In this document: one piece after another, positions 16,463 to 29,341 of the stretch
Layout of the letters: the number at the start of each line of letters is the position of its first letter
Position numbering within the stretch: the stretch's first letter is position 1
From: Nibricoccus sp.
Lineage (GTDB): Bacteria > Verrucomicrobiota > Verrucomicrobiia > Opitutales > Opitutaceae
Length of the DNA stretch: 64,000 nucleotides
Assembly: GCA_047602425.1 (NCBI GenBank)
Contig: JASGHG010000001.1
Span: 2,240,001-2,304,000, forward strand
Reading direction: 5' to 3'
Program-made: the position numbers and the translations under genes
Notes under the pieces: generated by a model
The model's database searches: none
What the model was told of the DNA's origin: nothing
Seen by the model: the letters and a program-made list of their open reading frames with translations, nothing else

Positions 16463-17718
16463 TTTCAATTACGCTCGGCCTCGCCTTGGTGGCAGCCCTT
16501 GTGGCTTTGTGGCGGCAGCACCGGTTGATGCGCCAACTGCACACCGCGCTGCTCAACCGCCAGCCGATCCTGAGCGAGTCCCTCCGGACCGGCGGCGATC
16601 ATGATTGGAATCACGTTTCGCAGGCCGCAAATGACTTGATTGCGGAATTCGGTCGGTTGCAGCAAATCCGTTCCGGGCAATTAACGCAGTTGGAGGCGAC
16701 GCTCGGAAGTTTGCAGGAGGCGGTCTTGATCGTCGATTCGGGCAACCGAATTATTCTGGCGAACAATGCGATGCAGGAAATTTTTCCGCGCGCGGCGAAT
16801 ATTCTTGGCCAACGCCTGGAGCAGGTCCTGCAAAGTGCGGCGTTTCTTCAATACGTGGACGATGTACGCAAAGGCGAAGCCCAGCCGCAGTATGAAATCG
16901 AGTTTGCCGAAGGGAATCGCGCGATTTGGGTCGAAGCCACCGGCACGAAAATTCCTTCTCTGGGCGCCGATAAAAATCCGTGGGCGCTCTTTGTATTGCA
17001 CGATATCACCAAGCAGAAAAAACTTGAGGCGGTGCGAAAGGATTTCGTTGCGAACGTCTCGCACGAACTGCGCACGCCGCTCAGTGTGATCAAAGGTTAC
17101 GTCGAGACTTTGGTCGATGACCACCAGACGATCCCCATCGAAGACCGCGAACGTTTCCTCCGCACGATCCAGCGGCATACGGAACGCTTGAACTCTTTGC
17201 TGGACGATTTGCTGGTTTTGTCGCGCTTGGAATCGATCAACCCGGGCCTGCGCCGCGAGTCGACCAACTTGGCTGATATTTTGCGCACCGTTATCGAGGA
17301 CTTCCGCGCGCGTCCGTCGGCGGCTGAGCACAAGATTGCCGCGACCTTCGCACCGATGATCGGGCCGCTGCTCATCGATCCATTGAAAATCACGCAGGTC
17401 TTGGAAAACCTAATCGACAACGCGCTCAAGTACACGCCCAAAGGTTCGCAGATCGACGTTTCAGCCAGTGTGCGCGAAGGAATGATCGAGATGAGCGTGC
17501 GCGATAACGGCCCGGGGATTCCCGCAGCGGACCTGCCGCATATTTTCGAGCGTTTTTATCGGGTGGACAAAGGTCGCTCGCGGGAAAAAGGCGGCACGGG
17601 TCTTGGTTTGAGCATTGTCAAACATATCGTGCAGCTTCACGGCGGCCAGGTGCGCGTCGAAAGCACACTGGGGCAGGGGACGACCTTCTGCTTTTCTTTG
17701 CAGCAACGAAGTGGTTAG
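16450..17718 (+). CDS. phoR: PAS-containing sensor histidine kinase, PhoR-like
   Basis: DFVANVSHELRTPL H-box and FERFYRVDKGRSREKGGTGLGLSIVKH. Confidence 0.82.
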   Translation: MCILISITLGLALVAALVALWRQHRLMRQLHTALLNRQPILSESLRTGGDHDWNHVSQAANDLIAEFGRLQQIRSGQLTQLEATLGSLQEAVLIVDSGNRIILANNAMQEIFPRAANILGQRLEQVLQSAAFLQYVDDVRKGEAQPQYEIEFAEGNRAIWVEATGTKIPSLGADKNPWALFVLHDITKQKKLEAVRKDFVANVSHELRTPLSVIKGYVETLVDDHQTIPIEDRERFLRTIQRHTERLNSLLDDLLVLSRLESINPGLRRESTNLADILRTVIEDFRARPSAAEHKIAATFAPMIGPLLIDPLKITQVLENLIDNALKYTPKGSQIDVSASVREGMIEMSVRDNGPGIPAADLPHIFERFYRVDKGRSREKGGTGLGLSIVKHIVQLHGGQVRVESTLGQGTTFCFSLQQRSG

Positions 17719-20700
17719 ATTTTTACGCGGGCTGGCTTGGGAAGCGAACGCTCGCGCAACCAGGCGAAGATCACCGGCGTGACAATCAGAATGTGCACGA
17801 GGCTGGAGAGCATGCCTCCGACGACGGGAGCGGCGAGCGGCTGCATGATTTCCGCGCCGGTGCGACTGCTCCAGAAAATCGGCAGCAACGACGCGACAGT
17901 GGTGGCGACGGTCATGACCTTGGGGCGCAACCGCAGTCGCGCGCCGGCTTTGATCGCGCCGAGCAATTCATCGTGGTTCAGTTCGCGGCCGACTTCGGCG
18001 CGCTTTTTGGCAATGGCTTCTTCCAGGTACACGACCATGACGACGCCGGTCTGGATCGCCGTGCCGAACAATGCGATATAACCAACCCAGACGGCCACGC
18101 TGAAATTGAAACCCATGAAGTGTTGCAGAAGCACCCCGCCGGTGAGCGCGAACGGCACGGCGAGAATTACATGGGCCGCCTCGGAGATCGAATGGAACGT
18201 CATCACCAGCAGGCCAAAGATGATGAGCAACACGATGGGGAAAACGATTTTCAACGTTTCACGGGCACGGATCTGATTTTCGTACTGGCCGCTATATTCG
18301 ATGGTCATGCCGGGATCGAGCTTTAGCTCCTTGCCGACGCGCTCCTTGATTTCATCGACAAAGCCGCCGAGGTCACGCTCGTTCACGTTGGCCTGAACGT
18401 AGACGCGCAGGCGGCCGTTTTCGCTGGCGATTTCGTTTGGACCAATGACGCGTTTGACGGTGGCGACCTGTTTCAAAGGCACATAAGCGCCGGACGGCGT
18501 CGGAATCACCAAGTCGCCAATTTTTTCGATGTCATCGCGGTCGGCGCGATCGAGCCGAACCTGAATGGGCCAGCGTTCACGACCTTTGATTGTGGTGGCC
18601 ACGGTGGTTCCCCCGAGGCCGGTTTCGACGTAGCGGAAGAGGTCGGCCATTTTCAGACCATAGCGGCCCATCTCGGCGCGATTGGCTTCGATTTCGAGAT
18701 AGGGTTTGCCCTGCACGCGCGAAGGGGCGACGCCGGTGGCGCCAGAAATGGCGGTAATAATGCGTTCCAGTTCGAAGGCCTTTTGTTGAAGAGCGTCGAG
18801 ATTGTCGCCGAAAATTTTCACGCCGACCTGTGCGCGTATGCCAGTACTCGTCATCAAAATTCGATTTTCGATCGGTTGCAAAAATCCCGGGACGTAGCCC
18901 GGCACGGCGGTGAGTCGCTCGATGAGTTCACCGATGATCTGCTGCTTCGTCACGCCGGGCCGCCAGTCTTTCTGCGGCTTCAGCATGATGGTGGTTTCGA
19001 TCATTTCGATAGGCGCGGGATCGGTCGCGGTTTCGGAGCGTCCAAGTTTACCGGCTACGGAGACGACTTCCGGGTGCTGGCTGATGACTTTGTCCTGCCA
19101 GGCCATGATGCGTTTCACCTCGGTGAGCGAGGTGGCTGGAAGCAGCACGGGCATGAAAAGCAGGCTGCCTTCCTCAAGTGTCGGCATGAACTCGCTGCCG
19201 AAACCTTCCGTGTGCTTGGCGACGGACGGTGCGGCTTTGTGCAACCACGAATTCATCGCGCGAGGCAAACCGAAGGCTATCACCAAACAGGTTACCAGCA
19301 GCGTGAAGGCGAGACTGAGCACGGTTTTACGGTGGGTGAGTGCCCAGTCGAGCGTGGGGTTATAAGCCTTCAGCAGGAATTTCATCAGCCAATTTTCGTG
19401 CTCCGGCTTGAAGGGCCCGCGGACGAGCAACGTACAGAAAACCGGGACGGCAGTGATGGCGAGAAGGGTGGCGCCAAGCAGGGCAAACGATTTTGTGTAG
19501 GCGAGGGGATGGAAGAGTTTTCCCTCTTGGCCGCTGAGCAGAAACACCGGCACGAAGGCGAGGATGATAATCGCCATTGAAAAAAACATCGGACGGCCGA
19601 CCTGTGTGGCGGCTTCGAGCGTTTCCTTGAACGTTTCGGCGGCGGTGAGGCGGCGTTTCAAGTGCTCCTCCGCAATCTCGCAGTGCCGGATCACGTTTTC
19701 GGTCATCACGATGCCGGCATCGACCAGCACGCCGATGGAGATCGCGATGCCCGTCAGCGACATGATGTGCGACGGAATGCCGAACTCTTTCATAAGGATA
19801 AAAGAGATCAGGATCGACGCAGGCAGCGGCAGCGTGACGATCAGGATGCTGCGGAAGTGGAACAGAAAGAGGATGTGCGCGAGCGTCACGAGGATAACTT
19901 CCTCGGTCAGCGCGTGCTTGAGCGTGTCGATGGCACGCTCGATCAAATCGCTTCGGTCATAGAACGATTCTACGGTCACACCTTTCGGCAGGCCGGGCGC
20001 TATGGCGGCGAGCTTGGCCTTTACGTCGTTGATGACCTTGTAGGCATTTTCTCCATAGCGCATAACGACGATGCCGCCGACGACTTCGCGGCCATTCACG
20101 TCGAGCGTGCCGCGGCGGAAATCGCCCCCAATCTCCACGCGGGCAACGTCGCGCAAATAGAGCGGCGTGCCATTGCGCGGCATGAGCGGGATGGATTCGA
20201 GATCGGAGATTTTGCCGACGAGACCGACGCCGCGCACGATGTATTCGGCGCCATTTTCCTCGATGGTTTTGCCGCCGACGTTGAGATTGCTGGCGCCGAG
20301 AGCATCCATCACCTCGCCGAGCGGTACGCCAAATTGTTTCAATTTGAGCGAGGAGACCTCGACCTGGTACTGTCGCACGAAACCACCAAGGCTGCCGATT
20401 TCAGCAACGCCGGGAACCGCCGCGAGTTGATAACGAATGAAAGTATCCTGAAGCGTGCGCAGGGAACCGAGATCCTGCTGACCGGACTGATCCTTCAAAT
20501 AATATTGGTACACCCAGCCCAACCCCGTTGCATCCGGACCGAGGCGGGCGGCGATTCCCTCTGGCAAAAGGTTCCCCAGTGAATTGAGACGTTCGAGCAC
20601 GCGGGTGCGGGCAAAGTAATTTTCAATCTTATCGTCGAAGATGACGGTGAGGAACGAAAAGCCGAACATCGAAGTGGCGCGCACGGTTTTCACGCCGGCC

Positions 20701-20927
20701 AGACCCTGAAGCGAAACGGATAGAGGGTAGGTGATCTGGTCTTCCACTTCCTGCGGCGAGCGCCCCGGCCAGTCGGCGTAGACGATCACCTGGTTTTCCG
20801 ACAAATCGGGAATGGCGTCGATCGGGATGGTGCGCAGCGCGAAGAATCCCCACGCACAAAGGCCTAGAAAGGCGCTTAGGACGAGAAAGCGGTTGTGGAG
20901 CGACCAAGTGATGATGCGATTGATCAT
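17715..20927 (-). CDS. cusA: Heavy-metal efflux RND permease, CusA-type
   Basis: DAIPDLSENQVI, LGPDATGLGWVYQY, FMPTLEEGSLLFMP, TDPAPIEMIETTI and RLRPKVMT, as in the CusA/SilA subgroup. Confidence 0.9.
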   Translation of the reverse strand: MINRIITWSLHNRFLVLSAFLGLCAWGFFALRTIPIDAIPDLSENQVIVYADWPGRSPQEVEDQITYPLSVSLQGLAGVKTVRATSMFGFSFLTVIFDDKIENYFARTRVLERLNSLGNLLPEGIAARLGPDATGLGWVYQYYLKDQSGQQDLGSLRTLQDTFIRYQLAAVPGVAEIGSLGGFVRQYQVEVSSLKLKQFGVPLGEVMDALGASNLNVGGKTIEENGAEYIVRGVGLVGKISDLESIPLMPRNGTPLYLRDVARVEIGGDFRRGTLDVNGREVVGGIVVMRYGENAYKVINDVKAKLAAIAPGLPKGVTVESFYDRSDLIERAIDTLKHALTEEVILVTLAHILFLFHFRSILIVTLPLPASILISFILMKEFGIPSHIMSLTGIAISIGVLVDAGIVMTENVIRHCEIAEEHLKRRLTAAETFKETLEAATQVGRPMFFSMAIIILAFVPVFLLSGQEGKLFHPLAYTKSFALLGATLLAITAVPVFCTLLVRGPFKPEHENWLMKFLLKAYNPTLDWALTHRKTVLSLAFTLLVTCLVIAFGLPRAMNSWLHKAAPSVAKHTEGFGSEFMPTLEEGSLLFMPVLLPATSLTEVKRIMAWQDKVISQHPEVVSVAGKLGRSETATDPAPIEMIETTIMLKPQKDWRPGVTKQQIIGELIERLTAVPGYVPGFLQPIENRILMTSTGIRAQVGVKIFGDNLDALQQKAFELERIITAISGATGVAPSRVQGKPYLEIEANRAEMGRYGLKMADLFRYVETGLGGTTVATTIKGRERWPIQVRLDRADRDDIEKIGDLVIPTPSGAYVPLKQVATVKRVIGPNEIASENGRLRVYVQANVNERDLGGFVDEIKERVGKELKLDPGMTIEYSGQYENQIRARETLKIVFPIVLLIIFGLLVMTFHSISEAAHVILAVPFALTGGVLLQHFMGFNFSVAVWVGYIALFGTAIQTGVVMVVYLEEAIAKKRAEVGRELNHDELLGAIKAGARLRLRPKVMTVATTVASLLPIFWSSRTGAEIMQPLAAPVVGGMLSSLVHILIVTPVIFAWLRERSLPKPARVKI

Positions 20928-20956
20928 TTAGAAAATGGAGGTCAAACCTCGAAAGG

Positions 20957-21064
20957 GCCACAGGAGAGCGCAGAGCTCGGACACAGAGGGCACTGAGAAT
21001 CGCGGGTAGGCCGGGTTTGTCAGACTCTGTGAACTCTGTGTCATCGCTCTGTGTTCTCCGTGGC
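20957..21064. repeat. CACAGAG/CTCTGTG imperfect inverted-repeat element between cusB and cusA
   Basis: Left arm 20957-20997 and right arm 21025-21064 are about 40-nt imperfect reverse complements built from CACAGAG units. Confidence 0.8.
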
Positions 21065-21080
21065 GAAATTTGTCTTTAGG

Positions 21081-22730
21081 TTATTTTATTTCTTCACCGC
21101 AGTCGGACATGGCGGAGCCGAAGAAGGGATTGCGCATCGGTTCGCCGCGCTGGAGCCAGCGGCCGGTGCCGAGGACGGGAGACATCGGACATTGATAAAT
21201 TTTCACCGCACCGGAGTGGTGCAGATGAGCGGTTTTCGCGAGGTCGGCCACTGCGGTGCTGAAAACTTCGAATGAGCGTCGAGCCGCTTTGATGTCAGGA
21301 GAGGCTTTCAGTCCCTCGGTGAATTGTGCGAGCGGGCCTTTGGCAGCGTCGGGCGACGACTTCACATAGGCCGCGAAATTTGTCTGAAGGCTGGGAATGA
21401 GCTTTTGATATTTCTCCAAATCATCGCTCGCAAGTGCGTCGGCCGCATCGGCCGCGGCGAGGACGAGCGGTTTTAGCGTCTCGATGTCGGCAGCGTGTTC
21501 TTCGGCCATGGGTTTTTCCGACGCCGATTCTCCGCTCGCGCTGTGCGCGAGTTGCGCCTGACCGTCGAGAAGCAGAGCGCCCTGGGTGACGACACGTTCA
21601 TTTGCATGCAGTCCGCCGCGGACCGAATAGTATTCGTCGCCTGCCGCGGCGATTTCGATGGTGCGCGGTTCGTACACACCGCCGCCTTTGTCAACGTAGA
21701 CGAGCGGCTTCGCTTGTGTATGCAAAACGGCACTACGCGGGACGAGTGTGGAATCAGGAACTTCGACCCGTACGTGGCCGGTGGCCGTGACACGGTGGAG
21801 CAGTTTCCGCTCGGCATTGTCGATGACCACGCGAACACGCGCGGTGCGAGTCATGGGATCGAGGTTCGGGTTGATGAAGGTGATTTGTGCGCCAAAGACT
21901 TCGCCGGGGCGCGAAGGCGTTGCCACCTCGACGTGCTGCCCCACGCGCAGCCAGGCAAGGTCGGACTCATAGGCGTCGAACAAAAACCACATCTTGGAAA
22001 AATCCGCGATCGTGAGAATGGGCGCGCCGGTCATGACATAGCTGCCTTCGTAGGCATTGCGCTCCAAAACCGAACCACCGACAGGCGCCAGAATTTCAGT
22101 CTCGCGGCTCACCGTTTCGGCTTTGGCGAGCGCGTCGATCTGCTCGGAGAGAAGGCCGAGACGAAGGAGCTTTTCGCGGGCGGCCGCGGCGAGGGGCGAA
22201 TCGCTGCCACCTTGCGCGAGCGCGTGGAACTCCTGTCGCACCTGCAATAATTCAGGCGAATAAACGAGCGCGAGTGGCTGGCCGGCGGCGAATTCCTGTC
22301 CGACTTGGTTCACAAAAAGCTTTTCAAGCCGAACCTCGGTATAGGCGGAAACGATGCGGTGGCGCGTATCGTCGTCCTCGATCGTGCCGGTGACACGAAG
22401 CGTGCGGGTGAGCGGGCCGGTTTTGACTTCGCTGGTCTGGACTCCGATCACGGAGGCGGTCGCGGGCGTGAGAGTGACGAGCCCGTTTTTTGTCTCGAAG
22501 CCGGCGTCACCCTCGTAGACCGGCACCAGGTCCATGCCGCAGATCGTGCATTTGCCGGGTTTGTCGGACTTGATCCACGGATGCATCGGACTTTGGTAGA
22601 ACTTGATCGTACGTCCGCCGGCCGTTGCCGAACCAGTCGCAGAGGCATGATCGCGTTTTGCGATAAAGAATCCGGCGCCGCCGGCGACGGCGGCCGTGAG
22701 AAGGACGATTAGAAAAGTTTTGGCGTTCAT
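21081..22730 (-). CDS. cusB: RND periplasmic adaptor, CusB-type, with an N-terminal heavy-metal-binding domain and a C-terminal DUF3347-like domain
   Basis: YQSPMHPWI...PGKCTICGMDLVP, MFP core (YSPELL, LDPMTRTARVR) and C-terminal YQCPM...NPFFGSAMSDCG. Confidence 0.88.
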   Translation of the reverse strand: MNAKTFLIVLLTAAVAGGAGFFIAKRDHASATGSATAGGRTIKFYQSPMHPWIKSDKPGKCTICGMDLVPVYEGDAGFETKNGLVTLTPATASVIGVQTSEVKTGPLTRTLRVTGTIEDDDTRHRIVSAYTEVRLEKLFVNQVGQEFAAGQPLALVYSPELLQVRQEFHALAQGGSDSPLAAAAREKLLRLGLLSEQIDALAKAETVSRETEILAPVGGSVLERNAYEGSYVMTGAPILTIADFSKMWFLFDAYESDLAWLRVGQHVEVATPSRPGEVFGAQITFINPNLDPMTRTARVRVVIDNAERKLLHRVTATGHVRVEVPDSTLVPRSAVLHTQAKPLVYVDKGGGVYEPRTIEIAAAGDEYYSVRGGLHANERVVTQGALLLDGQAQLAHSASGESASEKPMAEEHAADIETLKPLVLAAADAADALASDDLEKYQKLIPSLQTNFAAYVKSSPDAAKGPLAQFTEGLKASPDIKAARRSFEVFSTAVADLAKTAHLHHSGAVKIYQCPMSPVLGTGRWLQRGEPMRNPFFGSAMSDCGEEIK

Positions 22731-23977
22731 TGGGTGACGTCTTGTGCGGTCAGAAAATCGTAGGAGGCGGTGGCTTGGGCGTGTTCGCTGCGAACCTCGA
22801 CCAGCTTCATTTCGGTTTCGAGCAGGGCGCGCTGGGCCATGACGACCTCCAGCAATGGCGCCTGACCGCTCTCATAGGCACGGTGCTGAGTGGCGGCTTG
22901 CTGCTGTGCGAGGGGAAGAAGTTCGTTGCGGTAGCGGGCGATCTGCGTGGCGGTGATATTGATGCGTTGGATCACGCCTGCGACCATGCCAGCGAGTTCG
23001 CTTTCGGTCATTTGCACCTCGGCGCGCGCGGCGGTGATCATGCTGCGCGCTTCGGCGCGCTGGGCTTTGTTGCGCTTGTCGTTAAACCAAGGCACGCTGA
23101 ACGCCACGCCGGTGTCGTAACTGGAAATCACGTCGCCACTGCGATTCATCTGGCGGCCACGCACCATGATTTCAGGATCGATCGCACGATTTTTTTCCGC
23201 GATGGCGAGCTGGGCCTCGGCCGCTTTCACGCGGCGCGCGGCGCGAGCGAGCTCCGGATTGTGAAGGCGGGCGTGGGCCAGCGCTTCGGCGGGCGTGATC
23301 GAAATCGGACGAGCCTCAGGCAGGTTGAGAGGCGCGATCGCGGTCGCGGGCTCTCGCAACATCAAGGCGTTGAGTTTGCTGACGTCTTCTACGCGCATCG
23401 CGGCGAGATCGGCCTGTTCGGCATCGAGTCGCGCGAGTTCGGCCTGCGTGGTGATCAGATCCGCCTGCATGCGTTGACCGCGCTCATAAGCCTGGCGGGT
23501 CAACGTCACGGTTTGACGAAGGAGCGCGCGGAGACGTTCGTTAACGGCGGCTTTTGTATCGACAGCGGCAATACGCAGGTAGGCGGTGCGTGCCTGGTTG
23601 AACAAGTCGCGTTCGCGAACGGCGATGGCGGCATCGGCGACTCCGGCTTCCGCTGCGGCGGCTTCGGAGCGGAGTTTGTTGCGACGGCTCAGCGGAAGCT
23701 CTTGCGAGGCGGTCACCTCGATTTCCGAGTAAGTCGCGAAGCGTAACGTATCCTCGCGACGCCACTCGACTCCAACCTTCGGATCCATCCAAGCTTTTTC
23801 CTGCGCCACGCGCGCCCTCATGGCTTCGGCTTCGGCGCGCGAAGCGGCGAGCGCTGGATGATGTGTGCGAATGGCGGAAAAAACATCGCCGAGCGTCAGC
23901 GGCGGCGGCGGTTCTTCAGCGGCCATGGTGCTGGCGAACAGCACCGTGGCGAGAAAGCTTAAGGCTGGGCGTCGCAT
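22727..23977 (-). CDS. TolC-family outer-membrane efflux protein (CusC/CzcC-like)
   Basis: Signal peptide and OEP repeats (HHPALAAS, AYERGQ, AYESGQ); overlaps the cusB start by 4 nt. Confidence 0.85.
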   Translation of the reverse strand: MRRPALSFLATVLFASTMAAEEPPPPLTLGDVFSAIRTHHPALAASRAEAEAMRARVAQEKAWMDPKVGVEWRREDTLRFATYSEIEVTASQELPLSRRNKLRSEAAAAEAGVADAAIAVRERDLFNQARTAYLRIAAVDTKAAVNERLRALLRQTVTLTRQAYERGQRMQADLITTQAELARLDAEQADLAAMRVEDVSKLNALMLREPATAIAPLNLPEARPISITPAEALAHARLHNPELARAARRVKAAEAQLAIAEKNRAIDPEIMVRGRQMNRSGDVISSYDTGVAFSVPWFNDKRNKAQRAEARSMITAARAEVQMTESELAGMVAGVIQRINITATQIARYRNELLPLAQQQAATQHRAYESGQAPLLEVVMAQRALLETEMKLVEVRSEHAQATASYDFLTAQDVTQ

Positions 23978-23983
23978 GGAAGA

Positions 23984-24322
23984 TCAGGCCTTTTTCTTTT
24001 GAGCGGCTGCCTCGTCGATCAGCTTCAGATACTTGGCGGGATCTTTTTTGAATTTGCCAATGCACATCTTGCAGCAGAAGCGCACGAGGCGGTCGGGTTT
24101 GCCTTCTTCTTTATGGATATAGTCGATGGGTGTCCCCATCTCGCCGAGCTTTTCGCCCGAAACGACGCACGTATCAAGCGGGTAGGCCGCGGTGTCGGCA
24201 GCTGCGATCAATTGCACCGATGTCGGTTTGGCGGCACAGCAACCGCCGCAGGAGGAATCGCCGGCGGCGAACGCCAGGGAGGCGAGGGAGACAAAAGGGA
24301 GGAGGAGGAGTGATTTTTTCAT
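23984..24322 (-). CDS. Small exported YHS/TRASH-like Cys-rich metal-binding protein
   Basis: Signal peptide MKKSLLLL..., CGGCC, CVVSGEKL and FCCKMCIGKFKKDPAKYL. Confidence 0.8.
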   Translation of the reverse strand: MKKSLLLLPFVSLASLAFAAGDSSCGGCCAAKPTSVQLIAAADTAAYPLDTCVVSGEKLGEMGTPIDYIHKEEGKPDRLVRFCCKMCIGKFKKDPAKYLKLIDEAAAQKKKA

Positions 24323-24349
24323 ATGGGAATAAATGCGGAACAGCCTCCT

Positions 24350-24376
24350 TACGCCCGACAACTGGCGAAACCCTCA
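24350..24376 (-). promoter_or_regulatory. Putative ECF-sigma promoter of the efflux operon
   Basis: Minus strand TGAGGG-TTTCGCCAGTTGTCGGG-CGTA (17-nt spacer). Confidence 0.75.
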
Positions 24377-24393
24377 AATATTTTGAATAAATC

Positions 24394-24420
24394 TGAGGGG
24401 TGCGCTTATCCTCAGGTGTA
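24394..24420 (+). promoter_or_regulatory. Putative ECF-sigma autoregulatory promoter
   Basis: TGAGGG-GTGCGCTTATCCTCAGG-TGTA (17-nt spacer). Confidence 0.72.
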
Positions 24421-24440
24421 CGGTGAGCAAAGAAATCATC

Positions 24441-24746
24441 ATGAATCCAAATCCGAACGACGCAGAACTGGGGCCGCTGCTCCGGGAAAATTTTCAGGTT
24501 GGGCCCGCAAAAACCCCCGCGTTTCGTGCTGAGGTGTGGGCTCGCATTGAGGCCAGGCGCCGGGCTCCCGTGACTTGGAGCGCATGGCTGCGACTGAATG
24601 CGATGCGTTTTGCCCTGCTCACGATCGCTACGATAACAATTGGCAGTGTCGGTGGCGGCTGGATCGCCAAAGCCCAGACCGACCAAAACCGCGAGCAGCT
24701 GGTGCGGCAGTACCTCGCGAGCATCGATCCGCACCAGAAAATCTAA
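24441..24746 (+). CDS. Small single-TM putative anti-sigma factor (CnrY-like position)
   Basis: About 100 aa: short N-terminal cytoplasmic part (FRAEVWARI), one TM helix and C-terminal YLASIDP. First gene of the operon with the sensor and ECF sigma. ATG 24441 fits the promoter position. Confidence 0.65.
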   Translation: MNPNPNDAELGPLLRENFQVGPAKTPAFRAEVWARIEARRRAPVTWSAWLRLNAMRFALLTIATITIGSVGGGWIAKAQTDQNREQLVRQYLASIDPHQKI

Positions 24747-24757
24747 GCCGCACACCG

Positions 24758-25261
24758 ATGAAATTCCGCTGGATCGCCGCCTTTTTGATTTTCGCCCTTG
24801 GGTTGGTAGCGGGTGGTTCGACCTATCTTTGCTTCCGCAAGCCGCTGCCGGTGGCATCCGCGGGAGAGGATGCGTCGCTTCTTTGGCTGCGCTCGGACTT
24901 TAATTTACCTGCGGACAAGATGGCGCGCATCGCTCAACTGCACGAAGCCTATCGGGGAATCTGCGACGAGCATTGCCGCCAGATTCGCGAAGCACGCGTC
25001 ACTGTGAAAAAAATGCGCGCCGCCTCGGCCGAGCATTGCGACATCGTCGCCGCCGAAGCAAAAGTGGCCGATCTGGACCGCGTGTGTGTTACGAGCCTGG
25101 AGGCCCACCTGCGGGAAATTGCCGGCGTGATTGGCGGTAATGAAGGAGAGCGTTATCTTGCCGTCGTGTTGCCACGCATCGCGCATTTTGATCATTCCGG
25201 AGCGCCGAACCTTAATCTAGACACCACGGACAAGACGCATGACCACCACGCCCATCACTGA
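24758..25261 (+). CDS. Membrane-anchored periplasmic heavy-metal sensor (CnrX-like)
   Basis: N-terminal TM, helical domain WLRSDFNL...LHEAYRGICDEHC, additional Cys residues and His-rich tail THDHHAHH. Confidence 0.7.
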   Translation: MKFRWIAAFLIFALGLVAGGSTYLCFRKPLPVASAGEDASLLWLRSDFNLPADKMARIAQLHEAYRGICDEHCRQIREARVTVKKMRAASAEHCDIVAAEAKVADLDRVCVTSLEAHLREIAGVIGGNEGERYLAVVLPRIAHFDHSGAPNLNLDTTDKTHDHHAHH

Positions 25262-25841
25262 GACGGGCACGCCGACGGATGAGGACCTGATGGTGGCGCT
25301 GCAAGGAGGCCAGGATGCAGCGCTTGCTTCGCTCATGGAGCGCTGGGAACTTCCGGTGAAAGCATTTCTCCAGCGCCTCGGTGTTCCCGCGGCCGACGTG
25401 GAGGACGTGGCACAGGAAGCATTCGTGAAACTTTACGAAACACGGGCGCGGTTTCACGCCGGCTCGGCTTTCAAACCATGGTTACTCACGCTCGCAGGCA
25501 ATCTCGGGCGTAATCGGTTGCGGTGGAGATTCCGGCGGCGCGAAGACAGCATCGAGGCTATCGACGCGGCTCAAGCTGGCGGTTTTCAACCGGCTGATCC
25601 CACGGCGATGACAGGCGCGGTAGTCGCGGAAAAAAACGCGCTCCGGCAGACGGTGCGCGCAGCGGTGGAAGCGTTGCCGAACAATTTGCGAGAGGCAGTC
25701 GTGTGCGTGGAACTGGAAGAAATGAGTTACAACGACGCTGCACAGGTCATGAAATGCTCAACCAAGGCCGTGGAAACCCGGCTGTACCGTGCGCGGCAAT
25801 TGTTGCGCACGACGCTGCAGAGCTGGCTGACGAAAGAGTGA
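25239..25841 (+). CDS. ECF RNA polymerase sigma factor (CnrH-like)
   Basis: Region 2 (DVEDVAQEAFVKLY, FKPWL) and region 4 (MSYNDAAQVMKCSTKAVETRLYRAR). Confidence 0.9.
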   Translation: MTTTPITETGTPTDEDLMVALQGGQDAALASLMERWELPVKAFLQRLGVPAADVEDVAQEAFVKLYETRARFHAGSAFKPWLLTLAGNLGRNRLRWRFRRREDSIEAIDAAQAGGFQPADPTAMTGAVVAEKNALRQTVRAAVEALPNNLREAVVCVELEEMSYNDAAQVMKCSTKAVETRLYRARQLLRTTLQSWLTKE

Positions 25842-25875
25842 GCGATGACGGATGCGACTTGGGGGAGGCCGACAT

Positions 25876-25910
25876 AAAAATAAGGGCGCCGGATGTTGGC
25901 GCCCTGGTTT
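25876..25910. terminator. Probable bidirectional terminator
   Basis: AGGGCGCC-GGATGTT-GGCGCCCT stem with an A run on the left and TTT on the right, between convergent genes. Confidence 0.65.
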
Positions 25911-25924
25911 GAGAATTTCGCGAA

Positions 25925-26224
25925 TTAGGATTTCGCCTTGGTCGCGCAGCAGCTCATCGAGCTGTCATTGCAGTCGGAACAATCCATGTTCGTGCTGACG
26001 ACCTTGCGGATCGGAAGGCCGCGCGGGCCGGTGGTGACCTGAACCACCTCGGTGACTTTGCACTTCGAAGTGGGGGTCTGGGCAGCGGCATCGCGCGCGG
26101 CTTTGGCAGATCGGGCGACGGCGCCCACGCGGGTGAAATAGTCGGCGCCGGGACCGGCGCTAAGCGAGGAGGAACCTAGAGCGACCAGTGCGACGAGGGG
26201 CAGAAGAATGCGGAAGGATTTCAT
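25925..26224 (-). CDS. Small exported Cys-rich hypothetical protein
   Basis: Signal peptide and C-terminal CSDCNDSSMSCC; preceded by the same ECF promoter motif. Confidence 0.75.
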   Translation of the reverse strand: MKSFRILLPLVALVALGSSSLSAGPGADYFTRVGAVARSAKAARDAAAQTPTSKCKVTEVVQVTTGPRGLPIRKVVSTNMDCSDCNDSSMSCCATKAKS

Positions 26225-26269
26225 GAGAGGGTGTTTTGATTGTTTTGGTGAATTAACTTCGAGTCACCT

Positions 26270-26296
26270 TACACTCGGTTATTGGCGAAACCCTCA
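26270..26296 (-). promoter_or_regulatory. Putative ECF-sigma promoter of the small Cys-rich gene
   Basis: Minus strand TGAGGG-TTTCGCCAATAACCGAG-TGTA, nearly identical to 24350-24376. Confidence 0.75.
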
Positions 26297-26401
26297 GGAA
26301 TTCCTCAGAAAACCTGCGACAAGAAATGAGAGGCGCCATGTAGCTTTGCCTCGTTTCGAAACGGCGCCGGCGGCGCGCCACAATCGAGCCCGACTAACAG
26401 C

Positions 26402-29341
26402 CTAACGCTTCAGCAGGAGCAACCAGGCGCCCGAGGAGGGTTTCGCAAAACGGTTGTCGCGGTCGAATTTCGCAGACTGAACGGCGCCGGTTTTCGCGTC
26501 GCACCAGAGGGCGGTGCGATGGGTGCCGGCGTTCTTCAATTCGACGAAGGCGGATTCGCCTTCGGGGAGGAAATAAAGCGAGATGCTGCGGTTTTCATTG
26601 GCGAGGAGCCAGGTGCTATTACCGGTATCGACCGGTTTTAGTTCGGCGAGACAGTCTCCGAGATGCTCGCGCACGAAAGCGATGAAGGCGCGGTCATCGC
26701 GATCGTTTTTCAGCGGCTGGGCGGCGGCGTAATCGGCCAGCAGCGGCATCGCGCCGCCCGCCATTAAGATCGGAACCGGACCCTGACCCGCGTGGGGAGC
26801 GATGATGGCTTTGTCGGGGAAGCGGTCGCGATATTCGCGGACTTGTTTGTACACGAGTGCGGCCGTGCCCTGTGGAATGAGATCCTTGCCGAAGGCGGCG
26901 GTGCGGTCCTCGCGGAAAGCAGTTTTGCCATCGCTGTGCGGGGCAAAGAGGGAACCATCAGCCAGATACTGCCAGTAGCGCTGGTCGACGGCGGCGACGA
27001 GCGAGGCGCGTTTGGGGTCGGCGAGAATGGCATCGGTGATGGCTTTGCTGGTATTGAGAACGATGAATACGCGTTTGCCGCGGGCGGCCTGCCATTCGGC
27101 GACGGTATCGAGGAAGAATTGTTGGAACGAGAGCGGGCCGGCGAATTGGAAGGCGAGGGTGTGGATGACGTTGGGTTGCCCGTCGAAGGCGTCGAGGCCG
27201 TGCCAAATGAAAAGCCGGTGCAACTCGCGGCGCACGGGATGGCTGATATCGTAGAAGTCGGCGACGATGCCGATTCGCGAACCGTTATTGGTGAAAGGTG
27301 GCGGTTCGGTGAAGCCGGTTTCCTGAATGCAGTTGGCGGAGCGCCAGGGAAATTCGGCCCAGTGTGCAGCGGCTTCGACAAAGTTATGATGATTGTAGAA
27401 ATGATGGTAGAGAATCATGTCGCGGTGGGCGCACTCGGTCGCGAATTCACGGAGACGATTCCAATACCAAGGGTTGAACTTCGTGAGATCGTATTTGCTC
27501 AGTCCATCGGCGGCGGTGCCTTGGCCGCTGCGAGCCCACGGCGTTTCATAAAAAGGGGCACAGACATCGGCGTCGGGCTGGCTGATGGTGAGATGAGAAT
27601 CGCGGCGGCGGTCGTACCAAAGGCCGGGCCAGACGTGGACAAGGGTATTGCCGTTTGCGGCGAGGCGGGTTGCGAGCTCGGACAGATCTTCAGTCAGGCC
27701 GGGTCCGGTTTTACCTGGAACCCAGCGCGTGGCGCTCCAGCCAAGTTCGGCGGCGCGGGCTGGGATCGCCTGGCCTTTCCACCAAGCGTTGCTGGTGGCT
27801 GTGCCGAAAAGAACTTTGTTGCGAATAGTGAAGCGGCCATTGGTGATGCCGAAGGGTGCGGAAAGTGAGACCGGCGGCGAAAAAACGGACGGCGGAGCGG
27901 ATTGGCCGGAGGCCGTAGATTGGAGATCGGAGGTCGGGGGTCGGGAATCGGCGCGGTTTGACGCGGGTTCGGATTTGACGGATTGCCGGGCGGCGAGCTG
28001 AGTGCGGTAGAGGGAAAGTTTAGTGGAGTCGGAAAGGTTTTGGTTACTGGCACCAGGCGGGTTTTCGGCGAGGATTTTTTTGGCCGTGCAGTTCCACGCC
28101 ATGGAATTGGCGGCATTCCAGCCGGCGCCCTGAAAACGTTCGCCGAGGGTGCCGAGGACGAGGGAGCCACCGTCGATTTTCACGTTGTCAAAGAGTGTGC
28201 CGGAAGCCCAGCTCTCGATGGATCCGCTGTCTCCCGTCGCATGGGTAGCCACGCATTCGAAGAACACATTCGGCCCGGCCGCGCAGTGTCCCACGAGAAA
28301 AGGATGACGTGCGCCGTCGGCGGTGCAGCGTTGCACGAGGATTTGTTGTCCACCCACGTAGAAACCGAAGCGCCGCCAGCCAGCGTCGGCACCGACCGGC
28401 GCCTCACTCCGGCAGTCCTGCACGGTGATCGCGCGAGTGCCGGTGCCGAGCCAAACGGCGGCGCTGACAAAGTGGCGGGCGGTCACATCGCGTACCCAGG
28501 CGTTTTCTGTATTTTCAATCTGAATACCGATCCAAGCGTGTTCTTCGTCAGTGGCAGAATTGGAATCGAACTCACTCTGCAAAGTAAGATTTTCTACGCC
28601 GACGTTTTGCAGGCGGCTCGGCCAGTTGAGCGTTTGTGCGGTGGCGTTGCCATATTTGGCCTCAAGGGCGGTGGTGATGGGCGCATCGAACGTAACAGCC
28701 TGCGCGGCGGCGTCGATGGCGATAATGGTTCGGTCCCACTCGATCTCGCGGGAACCGGGCACCCAATTGAGACGGATGTCGGGAAAATTTCCGGGAAATT
28801 TGTCCATGCCGAGGTCTTGGGCCCACTCCTTCGTGCTCGGACGGCGGATGAGCACGCGTTGCCCGATCGACAGTCCATCAACCTTTGCAAGTTTGAGAGT
28901 CCGGCCTCCAACCGGGGCATCGGCGCCGATCGCGAGAGGAATGCCCAGCTTGCGATCCAAGGCGCTGCCAGAAATGAGAATGAGCGCCCGTCGCGATTGG
29001 CCGGTCGCCACCAACGTCGCGTTTTCGCCACGGAGTACGACACCGGAAGCGCGGATTTGCAGCTGGCCACTGACGGGATAAACGCCGGCTTTGAGGAGGA
29101 TGGCCCCTCGCAGGCCGGAGGGTGTGACGGCGAGCGAAGAAACTTTGTCGATAGCGGATTGGATGGCCGCGGTTGCATCGCCCTTTGACGGTTCGATGAT
29201 CATCGCATGGGCGACTTCCGGCAGGGGCAACTCTCCGCCGCTGAATCCCGCTTGGGAATAGTCCAGCGAAGCAGGCTCGGCAAAAAGAGCAACCGAACTA
29301 ACAAAAAGGAATAGTCCAAAAAAAAGGCGGGGACGGAGCAT
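26402..29341 (-). CDS. Secreted pectate-lyase-like beta-helix protein with a C-terminal DUF6298-like domain
   Basis: Signal peptide, LDYSQAGFSGG, DATAAIQSAID, ASGVVLRG, SWASGTLFDNV and PFYETPWARSGQGTAADGLSKYDLTKFNPWYWNRL. Confidence 0.75.
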   Translation of the reverse strand: MLRPRLFFGLFLFVSSVALFAEPASLDYSQAGFSGGELPLPEVAHAMIIEPSKGDATAAIQSAIDKVSSLAVTPSGLRGAILLKAGVYPVSGQLQIRASGVVLRGENATLVATGQSRRALILISGSALDRKLGIPLAIGADAPVGGRTLKLAKVDGLSIGQRVLIRRPSTKEWAQDLGMDKFPGNFPDIRLNWVPGSREIEWDRTIIAIDAAAQAVTFDAPITTALEAKYGNATAQTLNWPSRLQNVGVENLTLQSEFDSNSATDEEHAWIGIQIENTENAWVRDVTARHFVSAAVWLGTGTRAITVQDCRSEAPVGADAGWRRFGFYVGGQQILVQRCTADGARHPFLVGHCAAGPNVFFECVATHATGDSGSIESWASGTLFDNVKIDGGSLVLGTLGERFQGAGWNAANSMAWNCTAKKILAENPPGASNQNLSDSTKLSLYRTQLAARQSVKSEPASNRADSRPPTSDLQSTASGQSAPPSVFSPPVSLSAPFGITNGRFTIRNKVLFGTATSNAWWKGQAIPARAAELGWSATRWVPGKTGPGLTEDLSELATRLAANGNTLVHVWPGLWYDRRRDSHLTISQPDADVCAPFYETPWARSGQGTAADGLSKYDLTKFNPWYWNRLREFATECAHRDMILYHHFYNHHNFVEAAAHWAEFPWRSANCIQETGFTEPPPFTNNGSRIGIVADFYDISHPVRRELHRLFIWHGLDAFDGQPNVIHTLAFQFAGPLSFQQFFLDTVAEWQAARGKRVFIVLNTSKAITDAILADPKRASLVAAVDQRYWQYLADGSLFAPHSDGKTAFREDRTAAFGKDLIPQGTAALVYKQVREYRDRFPDKAIIAPHAGQGPVPILMAGGAMPLLADYAAAQPLKNDRDDRAFIAFVREHLGDCLAELKPVDTGNSTWLLANENRSISLYFLPEGESAFVELKNAGTHRTALWCDAKTGAVQSAKFDRDNRFAKPSSGAWLLLLKR

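Follow-up and report, generated by a model that had tools for sequence, protein, structure and literature searches.

The window analyzed here, 64,000 nucleotides (nt) of the Nibricoccus sp. contig JASGHG010000001.1, contains a three-gene cassette (Y, X and an extracytoplasmic function (ECF) sigma factor) lying divergent to a CusCBA-type efflux operon. We propose that the cassette is probably an autoregulated, CnrYXH-like switch for periplasmic Cu(I)/Ag(I), used in place of CusRS. The plus-strand order of a small protein with a single transmembrane (TM) segment, a periplasmic helical sensor and an ECF sigma factor (101, 167 and 200 amino acids (aa), respectively) is as described in the original prediction made from the DNA. 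Coordinates are window positions unless prefixed by G000:C1, which denotes the host genome (5.16 Mb), or by an L-number, which denotes an individual locus of this or a compared genome. The features of the region are as follows.

17715..20927, minus strand: cusA-type subunit of a heavy-metal-efflux resistance-nodulation-division (HME-RND) pump, 1070 aa (TIGR00914 over its cut-off, PDB CusA match, residue mapping)
20928..21080, no strand: dispersed palindromic repeat in the cusB-cusA gap, outside the switch (blastn copies, long hairpin)
21081..22730, minus strand: cusB-type adaptor, 549 aa, with an N-terminal heavy-metal-binding domain (PF19335, PF16576, PF13437)
22727..23977, minus strand: cusC-type outer-membrane factor, 416 aa (PF02321)
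23984..24322, minus strand: small exported YHS/TRASH-like protein (yhs), 112 aa, heading the pump operon (PF04945, E 5e-4, under its cut-off)
24350..24376, minus strand: predicted promoter P1, TGAGGG-N17-CGTA, for yhs-cusCBA, predicted start about 24341 (motif; spacing by analogy with cnr)
24394..24420, plus strand: predicted promoter P2, TGAGGG-N17-TGTA, for Y-X-sigma, autoregulatory, predicted start about 24429 (motif, conservation)
24441..24746, plus strand: Y, 101-aa single-pass protein, likely anti-sigma factor (position -2, size, one hydrophobic segment)
24758..25261, plus strand: X, 167-aa membrane-anchored periplasmic sensor, CnrX-like fold (PF13801, model, conservation)
25239..25841, plus strand: ECF sigma factor, 200 aa; its region 4.2 recognition helix is CnrH-like (PF04542, PF08281, TIGR02937)
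25883..25905, minus strand: terminator-like hairpin with a T-tail, closing the small secreted gene (consensus scan)
25925..26224, minus strand: secreted protein of 99 aa whose C-terminal cysteines are conserved, third predicted regulon member (homologues)
26270..26296, minus strand: predicted promoter P3, TGAGGG-N17-TGTA, for the small secreted protein, predicted start about 26261 (motif)

The three TGAGGG-N17-YGTA sites claimed in the original prediction were all recovered before their three units, where 0.04 sites would be expected in the window, and none of 100 shuffles reaches three. The motif ends 27, 20 and 45 nt ahead of the start codon for P1, P2 and P3, respectively, and the two minus-strand sites, also predicted to have much of their spacer in common, agree at 12 of its 17 bases, including all of the first 8. 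A scan of the genome adds a qualification. Three of the five genomic copies fall inside 2 kb at this locus, but the bare motif occurs 5 times where about 5.5 copies are predicted from half-motif counts, so that there is no genome-wide enrichment and the signal consists of this clustering and of conservation in orthologous loci. One of the two remaining copies lies within a 983-codon open reading frame (ORF) on the opposite strand, and the other is at G000:C1:1150533. P2 also holds an inverted repeat, CTGAGG-N11-CCTCAG (24393-24416); its minus-strand reading, TGAGGA-N17-TTTA, is a possible weak second promoter toward the pump operon.

Conservation was examined in 50 related loci with an X relative, found by a scan of species genomes; 49 are titled Verrucomicrobiota/Opitutae and the remaining one 'uncultured bacterium'. 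After one truncated locus was dropped, an exact YGAGGG-N16/17-YGTA site was found within 130 nt upstream of Y in 23 of 49 loci, compared with 1 of 918 control windows; with up to one mismatch, the counts are 28 of 49 and 17 of 918. The conservation expected among Opitutae orthologues and the predicted autoregulation are supported. Most other loci carry GTTA or TTTA as the -10 variant, and a relaxed pattern gives a plus-strand site in 40 of 51 loci (window included). Within 17 close loci (286 kb), 26 motif sites were found, with 0.9 expected. The spacer is N17 in all 24 sites where the sigma factor is at least 59% identical to that of the window (window included) and N16 in 39 of 40 sites of loci with a more distant sigma factor; loci having both divergent promoters show equal spacer lengths in 20 of 20 cases. 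At the level of sequence, this agreement ties the pump promoter to the adjacent sigma factor. We consider it very probable that this sigma factor would read all three window sites.

A matrix from the 17 close loci, seeded with the pattern of the window itself, places the three window sites at the top of the genome ranking (28.6, 27.8 and 20.9 bits). The genome-wide matrix scan gave no convincing further regulon member, the fourth site (19.0 bits) being inside an ORF. A separate CzcCBA-like operon (G000:C1:1007359-1013332, minus strand) has none of the 30 best matrix sites at its start. The sigma-70 consensus has no match in 17000-27000, compared with 2.6 in shuffles.

The same promoter architecture is found in the cnr system, as had been proposed. 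On pMOL28, cnrYp is AAGGG-N17-CGTA and cnrCp is GAGGG-N17-CGTA (written together as MAGGG-N17-CGTA). Their mapped starts are given as 24 and 25 nt ahead of the genes in the relevant part of PMC9045368, which on pMOL28 corresponds to 8-9 nt past the motif. The published ECF291 elements, ATACGC and CCCTCA in Table 4 of PMC13492112 and TACGCA in a supplementary entry of PMC7826278, look like the reverse complement of the CnrH-type promoter. Such a reversal may account for ECF291 sites having been missed upstream of cnrY.

The region 4.2 helix, K[AT][VI]E[TG]R, is common to the window sigma factor, CnrH and the Sphingomonas and Asticcacaulis proteins (two of the three proteobacterial ECF291-type reference proteins were checked), and RpoE differs from it. 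In two trees the Opitutae sigma factors form a clade of their own (support 100/100 and 98/94), and CnrH with three alphaproteobacterial relatives forms a separate one (99/89 and 100/99). The two clades are joined at 54/62 in a 27-row tree without long branches, and are not joined in a 49-row tree in which the Opitutae rows were thinned by half. Against PDB sequences, AlgU and RpoE rank above CnrH for the window sigma factor. The text of PMC7826278 defines ECF291 through the surrounding genes, namely one for a CnrY-like protein at -2, one for a metal-resistance protein at -1, and resistance genes next to the cassette. The gene context here agrees, with a small single-TM protein at -2 and a PF13801-type protein at -1, and so does the promoter form AGGG-N16/17-CGTA. 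Metal-resistance genes adjoin the cassette as well, here divergently; the published positions are +1 to +4, as in L041. The published taxonomic range, given in a supplementary entry of PMC7826278 as Proteobacteria 98.45% and Cyanobacteria 1.55%, is not that of the present loci, and the reference set holds CnrH (ECF291s9) as its sole published member, its three relatives being our own assignment. The cassette would work like CnrYXH, and the sequence evidence for membership in ECF291 is inconclusive, neither showing nor rejecting it.

Y has one hydrophobic segment from residue 57, leaving about 56 cytoplasmic residues and a short periplasmic tail. It resembles CnrY in position, size and topology, and its family is conserved among the relatives. 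A single protein combines Y with the periplasmic part of X in two paralogous loci (L094 in this genome, and L107), a fusion that supports a Y-X partnership. From these features Y is in all likelihood the anti-sigma factor and X the sensor. An Atlas search leads from Y to unnamed clusters alone and from X to Metal_resist clusters. Neither CnrX nor CnrY came up when profiles of X and Y were searched against PDB sequences, and the resulting matches to bicaudal D and the A2a receptor were rejected as composition artefacts.

The AlphaFold2 model of X (pLDDT 82.5) has helices at 52-88 and 93-125. CnrX is the rank 1 Foldseek match (E 0.41), and structural re-scoring of the Foldseek matches gives CnrX a Z of 8.9, with a root-mean-square deviation of 2.4 Å over 101 residues at 14% identity; CnrX makes up seven of the eight best structural rows. 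PF13801 is matched by 37 of 44 X homologues at E<=0.1. The CnrX ligands are listed in the relevant section of PMC6851896 as H42, H46, E63, H119 and M123, and the same section describes M123 as making CnrX responsive to Ni/Co. These residues align to L41, R45, H62, H117 and I121 of X, so that the ligand set is not kept, with three of the five gone and one changed. The H42, H46 and M123 positions are L/M, R/Q and V/C/I in 44 of 44 X rows.

H62, C69, H72, C73 and C110 of X are invariant in those 44 rows. Of 150 cluster representatives, 146 retain C69, 146 retain C73 and 144 retain C110, and position 72 is His in 90, Met in 30 and Leu in 15. From the helix register, the three cysteines and the His/Met position would lie on facing helices, which suggests a soft-metal site. 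This residue set, which differs from that of CnrX, went unmentioned in the original prediction. The signal is probably Cu(I)/Ag(I), for which C69/C73/C110 together with H/M72 would form the binding site. Counting weak paralogues, X has a match at E<=0.001 in 21 of 26 same-family genomes and in 34 of 301 genomes of a phylum sample; the cassette with a cysteine-containing sensor is common in Opitutaceae.

The pump is CusA-type, not CnrA/CzcA-type, by score and by its Met triad, in agreement with the claim of a CusCBA-type pump. Among PDB sequences, its RND subunit reaches 880 bits with E. coli CusA and 542 bits with ZneA. It keeps the Met triad M592/M642/M692 together with D403, M408 and K1003; CnrA is without the triad. 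The charged membrane positions were located on an alignment with PDB CusA, at what we take to be D405, E939 and K984 of the E. coli protein: D403 and K1003 are kept, and Gln959 stands at the E939 position, which is also Gln in 8 related loci. The role of the triad in CusA is described in part of PMC7558416. Across the window and L001-L050, three CusA lineages stand beside the cassette, and their residue at the E939 position is Gln, Glu or Asn. Members of the Asn lineage, about 1240-1290 aa long, also carry Ala in place of K984 yet retain the Met triad. The top NCBIfam match of the cusB-type adaptor is CusB NF007303, below its cut-off. A yhs homologue occurs in 32 of 50 loci, with C52, M62, C83, C84 and C87 invariant in 28 rows. 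A fold search with the YHS protein gave nothing at E<=0.001, the weak Foldseek matches (E >=0.4) being to L24e-like and monooxygenase chains. We infer that this YHS/TRASH-like protein is a candidate periplasmic metal chaperone.

The neighborhood of the cassette is largely of copper type in the related loci. A Met-triad CusA is present in 26 of 50 (split into two pieces in L039), a family of P-type ATPases bearing CPC and, in most cases, MxxSS signatures in 23, a second sigma factor with a cysteine-rich tail in 11 and a multicopper oxidase in 6. A Cus subunit, ATPase or oxidase was found in 33 of the 34 loci with at least 7.5 kb upstream, the exception being L049. No CnrA/CzcA-type pump was found among the 28 loci having a long RND subunit; the two of these subunits that are not among the 26 CusA (L007 and L012; 28% identity) are without the Met triad.

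We propose that X would bind periplasmic Cu(I)/Ag(I) via its conserved cysteines, and that metal-bound X would cause Y to release the ECF sigma factor. The freed sigma factor would then transcribe from P1, P2 and P3. The outputs would be export by yhs-cusCBA and the small secreted cysteine-rich protein, and transcription of the Y-X-sigma operon itself would amplify the response and supply new Y and X to reset the switch.

Several observations weigh against this proposal. The Z of 8.9 is moderate and within the range of common helical hairpins, and the X-CnrX sequence match is weak (4.9%). In profile comparison Y has no detectable similarity to CnrY (probability 0.2%) or to Sphingomonas Y (probability 0.5%), and it has no Pfam or PDB match. 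The conservation of the cysteines is partly circular for the 44 rows and the 150 representatives alike, as one search pattern and the profile included them, and the cysteines may form disulfides. The spacer pattern corresponds to about one evolutionary change among kin rather than 64 independent events, and the top matrix ranking of the window sites is partly by construction. The isolate locus L049 has the cassette without the motif and without copper genes. Finally, the genome contains two paralogous sigma factors with related promoters, and a two-component pair (G000:C1:4436624-4438640) that scores 208 of 293 bits for CusS and 237 of 279 bits for CusR, under the cut-offs.

The same wiring might serve an X that senses periplasmic thiol/disulfide stress, with C73-C110 as a staple, C69 as a redox or inter-subunit switch and copper acting indirectly. 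From the helix register of the model, C73 and C110 are expected to lie opposite one another in the hairpin; the periplasm is oxidizing, and a passage of PMC6851896 says that periplasmic copper sites and proteins favor Met/His over Cys. We nevertheless regard this alternative as unlikely. The odd number of conserved cysteines, the His/Met exchange at position 72 and the two histidines at the CnrX E63 and H119 positions fit a metal site, and the neighbors are copper exporters and oxidases, with no thiol-repair family annotated among the recurrent neighbors. Somewhat less likely still is induction by a different metal or a wider range of them (Ni/Co, to which CnrX responds, or Zn, Hg or Au). Such a response would suit the CnrX-like fold, with H62 and H117 at CnrX ligand positions, and thiolates bind many soft ions. 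However, the regulated genes are copper-type, and H42, H46 and M123 of CnrX, the last being the Ni/Co determinant in the section of PMC6851896 cited above, are replaced in every X row. Periplasmic Cu(I)/Ag(I) is the signal that we prefer.

Two further alternatives concern the wiring itself. The promoters could be real and yet be read mainly by a paralogous sigma factor, or the pump could be mainly under an unlinked two-component system, the cassette being secondary in either case. The two additional Y-X-sigma cassettes with promoters AGAGGG-N17-GTTA and GAAGGG-N17-GTTA, and the CusRS-like pair just below the cut-offs, are in line with this. In contrast, the pump-promoter spacer length follows the adjacent sigma factor in all 20 informative loci, the recognition helix of the paralogues differs and their promoters fall outside the 30 best matrix scores, and we consider such an arrangement quite improbable. 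No CusS or CusR above the family cut-off and no CsoR/RcnR match were found in the genome, and the convergent two-component pair adjacent to the locus, tried as CusRS, was rejected since it scores as PhoB/PhoR-like. We give very little credence to the remaining explanation, in which the motifs are no sigma promoters and a dimeric transcription factor would bind them as operator half-sites (CCCTCA-N17-TGAGGG between the divergent genes). The TGAGGG hexamers at 24371-24376 and 24394-24399 do form an inverted pair 17 bp apart, but the distance between back-to-back hexamers varies widely between loci whereas the hexamer-to-YGTA distance is fixed. Moreover, single copies exist (P3 and many loci), and the pattern equals the mapped CnrH promoters.

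The closest known system is CnrYXH/cnrCBA of Cupriavidus metallidurans CH34 pMOL28. It likewise has the Y-X-sigma order, a small single-pass Y, a membrane-anchored periplasmic X of the same fold, AGGG-N17-CGTA autoregulatory and efflux promoters and an RND output. Here, however, the pump is CusA-type with the Met triad and its operon is divergent, while that of cnr is downstream; X lacks H42, H46 and M123 and has three cysteines, Y is not detectably similar, although CnrY-type proteins are described as highly variable in a supplementary entry of PMC7826278, and the sigma factor belongs to a separate clade.

The claim of an undescribed system proved overstated. CnrYXH-like cassettes beside copper genes are already known, including the same layout with a CusA-type pump in Asticcacaulis, and in a supplementary entry of PMC7826278 the ECF291 neighbors already include multicopper oxidase, CopB, CopC and CopD. 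Y-X-sigma likewise stands beside copper genes in Sphingomonas sp. AAP5 p150, S. koreensis and Asticcacaulis excentricus pASTEX02. On the Sphingomonas plasmids the cassette lies within cop islands, and the alphaproteobacterial cassettes have AGGG-N16-CGTA before several operons. On pASTEX02 of the cultured strain A. excentricus CB 48 (L093, NC_014819.1 133000-146000), this promoter precedes a TolC-adaptor-CusA operon with the Met triad. The alphaproteobacterial X differs in keeping the CnrX His/Glu/His/Met positions and lacking the three cysteines of the window X, and the corresponding sigma factors group with CnrH (99-100 support), apart from that of the window.

E. coli CusRS-cusCFBA has the same pump type and presumably the same task, which a section of PMC7558416 gives as periplasmic Cu(I)/Ag(I) removal. 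In the window, control is likely by an ECF sigma factor instead of a kinase and response regulator, the operon is without cusF and begins with the YHS/TRASH-like protein, and Gln occupies the E939 position. Among copper-responsive ECF sigma factors, CorE of Myxococcus (ECF238) senses copper itself in the cytoplasm, without an anti-sigma factor, and CarQ controls carotenoids. SigAb-AabA-AabB of Acinetobacter baumannii, described in part of PMC12153292, is copper-responsive and has a small CnrY-like anti-sigma factor with a periplasmic partner. SigAb acts on efflux genes indirectly, whereas the window promoter sits directly before the pump operon. In its passage on ECF factors, the copper-signaling review PMC10141476 names CorE alone. 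The relevant passages of reviews give CnrYXH as the Ni/Co case (PMC6851896) and CorE and CarQ as the copper ECFs, and mention no anti-sigma-controlled ECF that directly drives a Cus pump. In open-licence PMC and bioRxiv texts, no paper was found on the system of this lineage or on a cysteine-type CnrX sensor.

A bolder reading, which we put forward tentatively and at slightly less than even chances, is that X is the first member of a class of periplasmic sensors that use the CnrX fold to bind Cu(I)/Ag(I) through cysteine thiolates, and that in Opitutaceae its ECF switch takes the place of CusRS as a rule, operating alongside a CorE-like cytoplasmic sigma factor at the P-type ATPase. ECF sigma factors would then govern the copper responses of both compartments. 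Should X bind Cu(I) by thiolates, it would depart from the periplasmic Met/His rule and add a second chemistry to the CnrX scaffold, which would help in finding out how X, on binding metal, sets the sigma factor free from Y. The paralogous cassettes (without cysteines, with a true CnrX, or with a Y-X fusion) would form a natural panel of ligand and promoter-spacing changes on one scaffold. Being a unit of three genes with a short and defined promoter, the cassette is portable, has potential as a copper/silver biosensor, and would provide a copper-response model for a little-studied phylum.

The two paralogous cassettes with related promoters in this genome, which the original prediction did not include, differ in their sensors. 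The second Y-X-sigma cassette (L095, G000:C1:753507-755296, minus strand) is led by a small secreted cysteine-rich protein; its promoter is AGAGGG-N17-GTTA and its X has a different cysteine pattern. In the third (L094, G000:C1:2725337 to about 2726660, minus strand), Y is fused to the periplasmic part of X; this subfamily is without C69/C73, and its promoter is GAAGGG-N17-GTTA in 7 of the examined loci. In a same-family genome, the cassette X of L109 (G060:C1:3996500-4000500) keeps the CnrX His/His/Glu/His/Met positions, so that three or more sensor chemistries share one scaffold in Opitutaceae. At L096 (G000:C1:2742941-2745601, plus strand), a sigma factor that we label CorE-like (CxC, cysteine-rich tail) stands directly before a P-type ATPase, the first approximately 70 codons of which are in another frame than the rest, owing to a real frameshift or an assembly error.

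Of the remaining features, the 99-aa secreted protein has 18 homologues at 61-78% identity and no significant Pfam match. Terminator-like consensus sites, such as the one that closes its gene, are no commoner in the region than in its shuffles. Upstream alternatives to the start codons of Y (GTG 24423) and yhs (TTG 24361) were rejected, lying inside or before the predicted start sites and without homologue support, as were, as genes, many antisense ORFs overlapping the locus genes. In the minus-strand pump operon, yhs and cusC are spaced by 6 nt, cusC and cusB overlap, and cusB and cusA are separated by 153 nt. By blastn, the repeat filling this gap matches at least 39 further places in the genome; it has a hairpin of -58 kcal/mol and could uncouple cusA expression. 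In the related locus L001 the gap is only about 25 nt.

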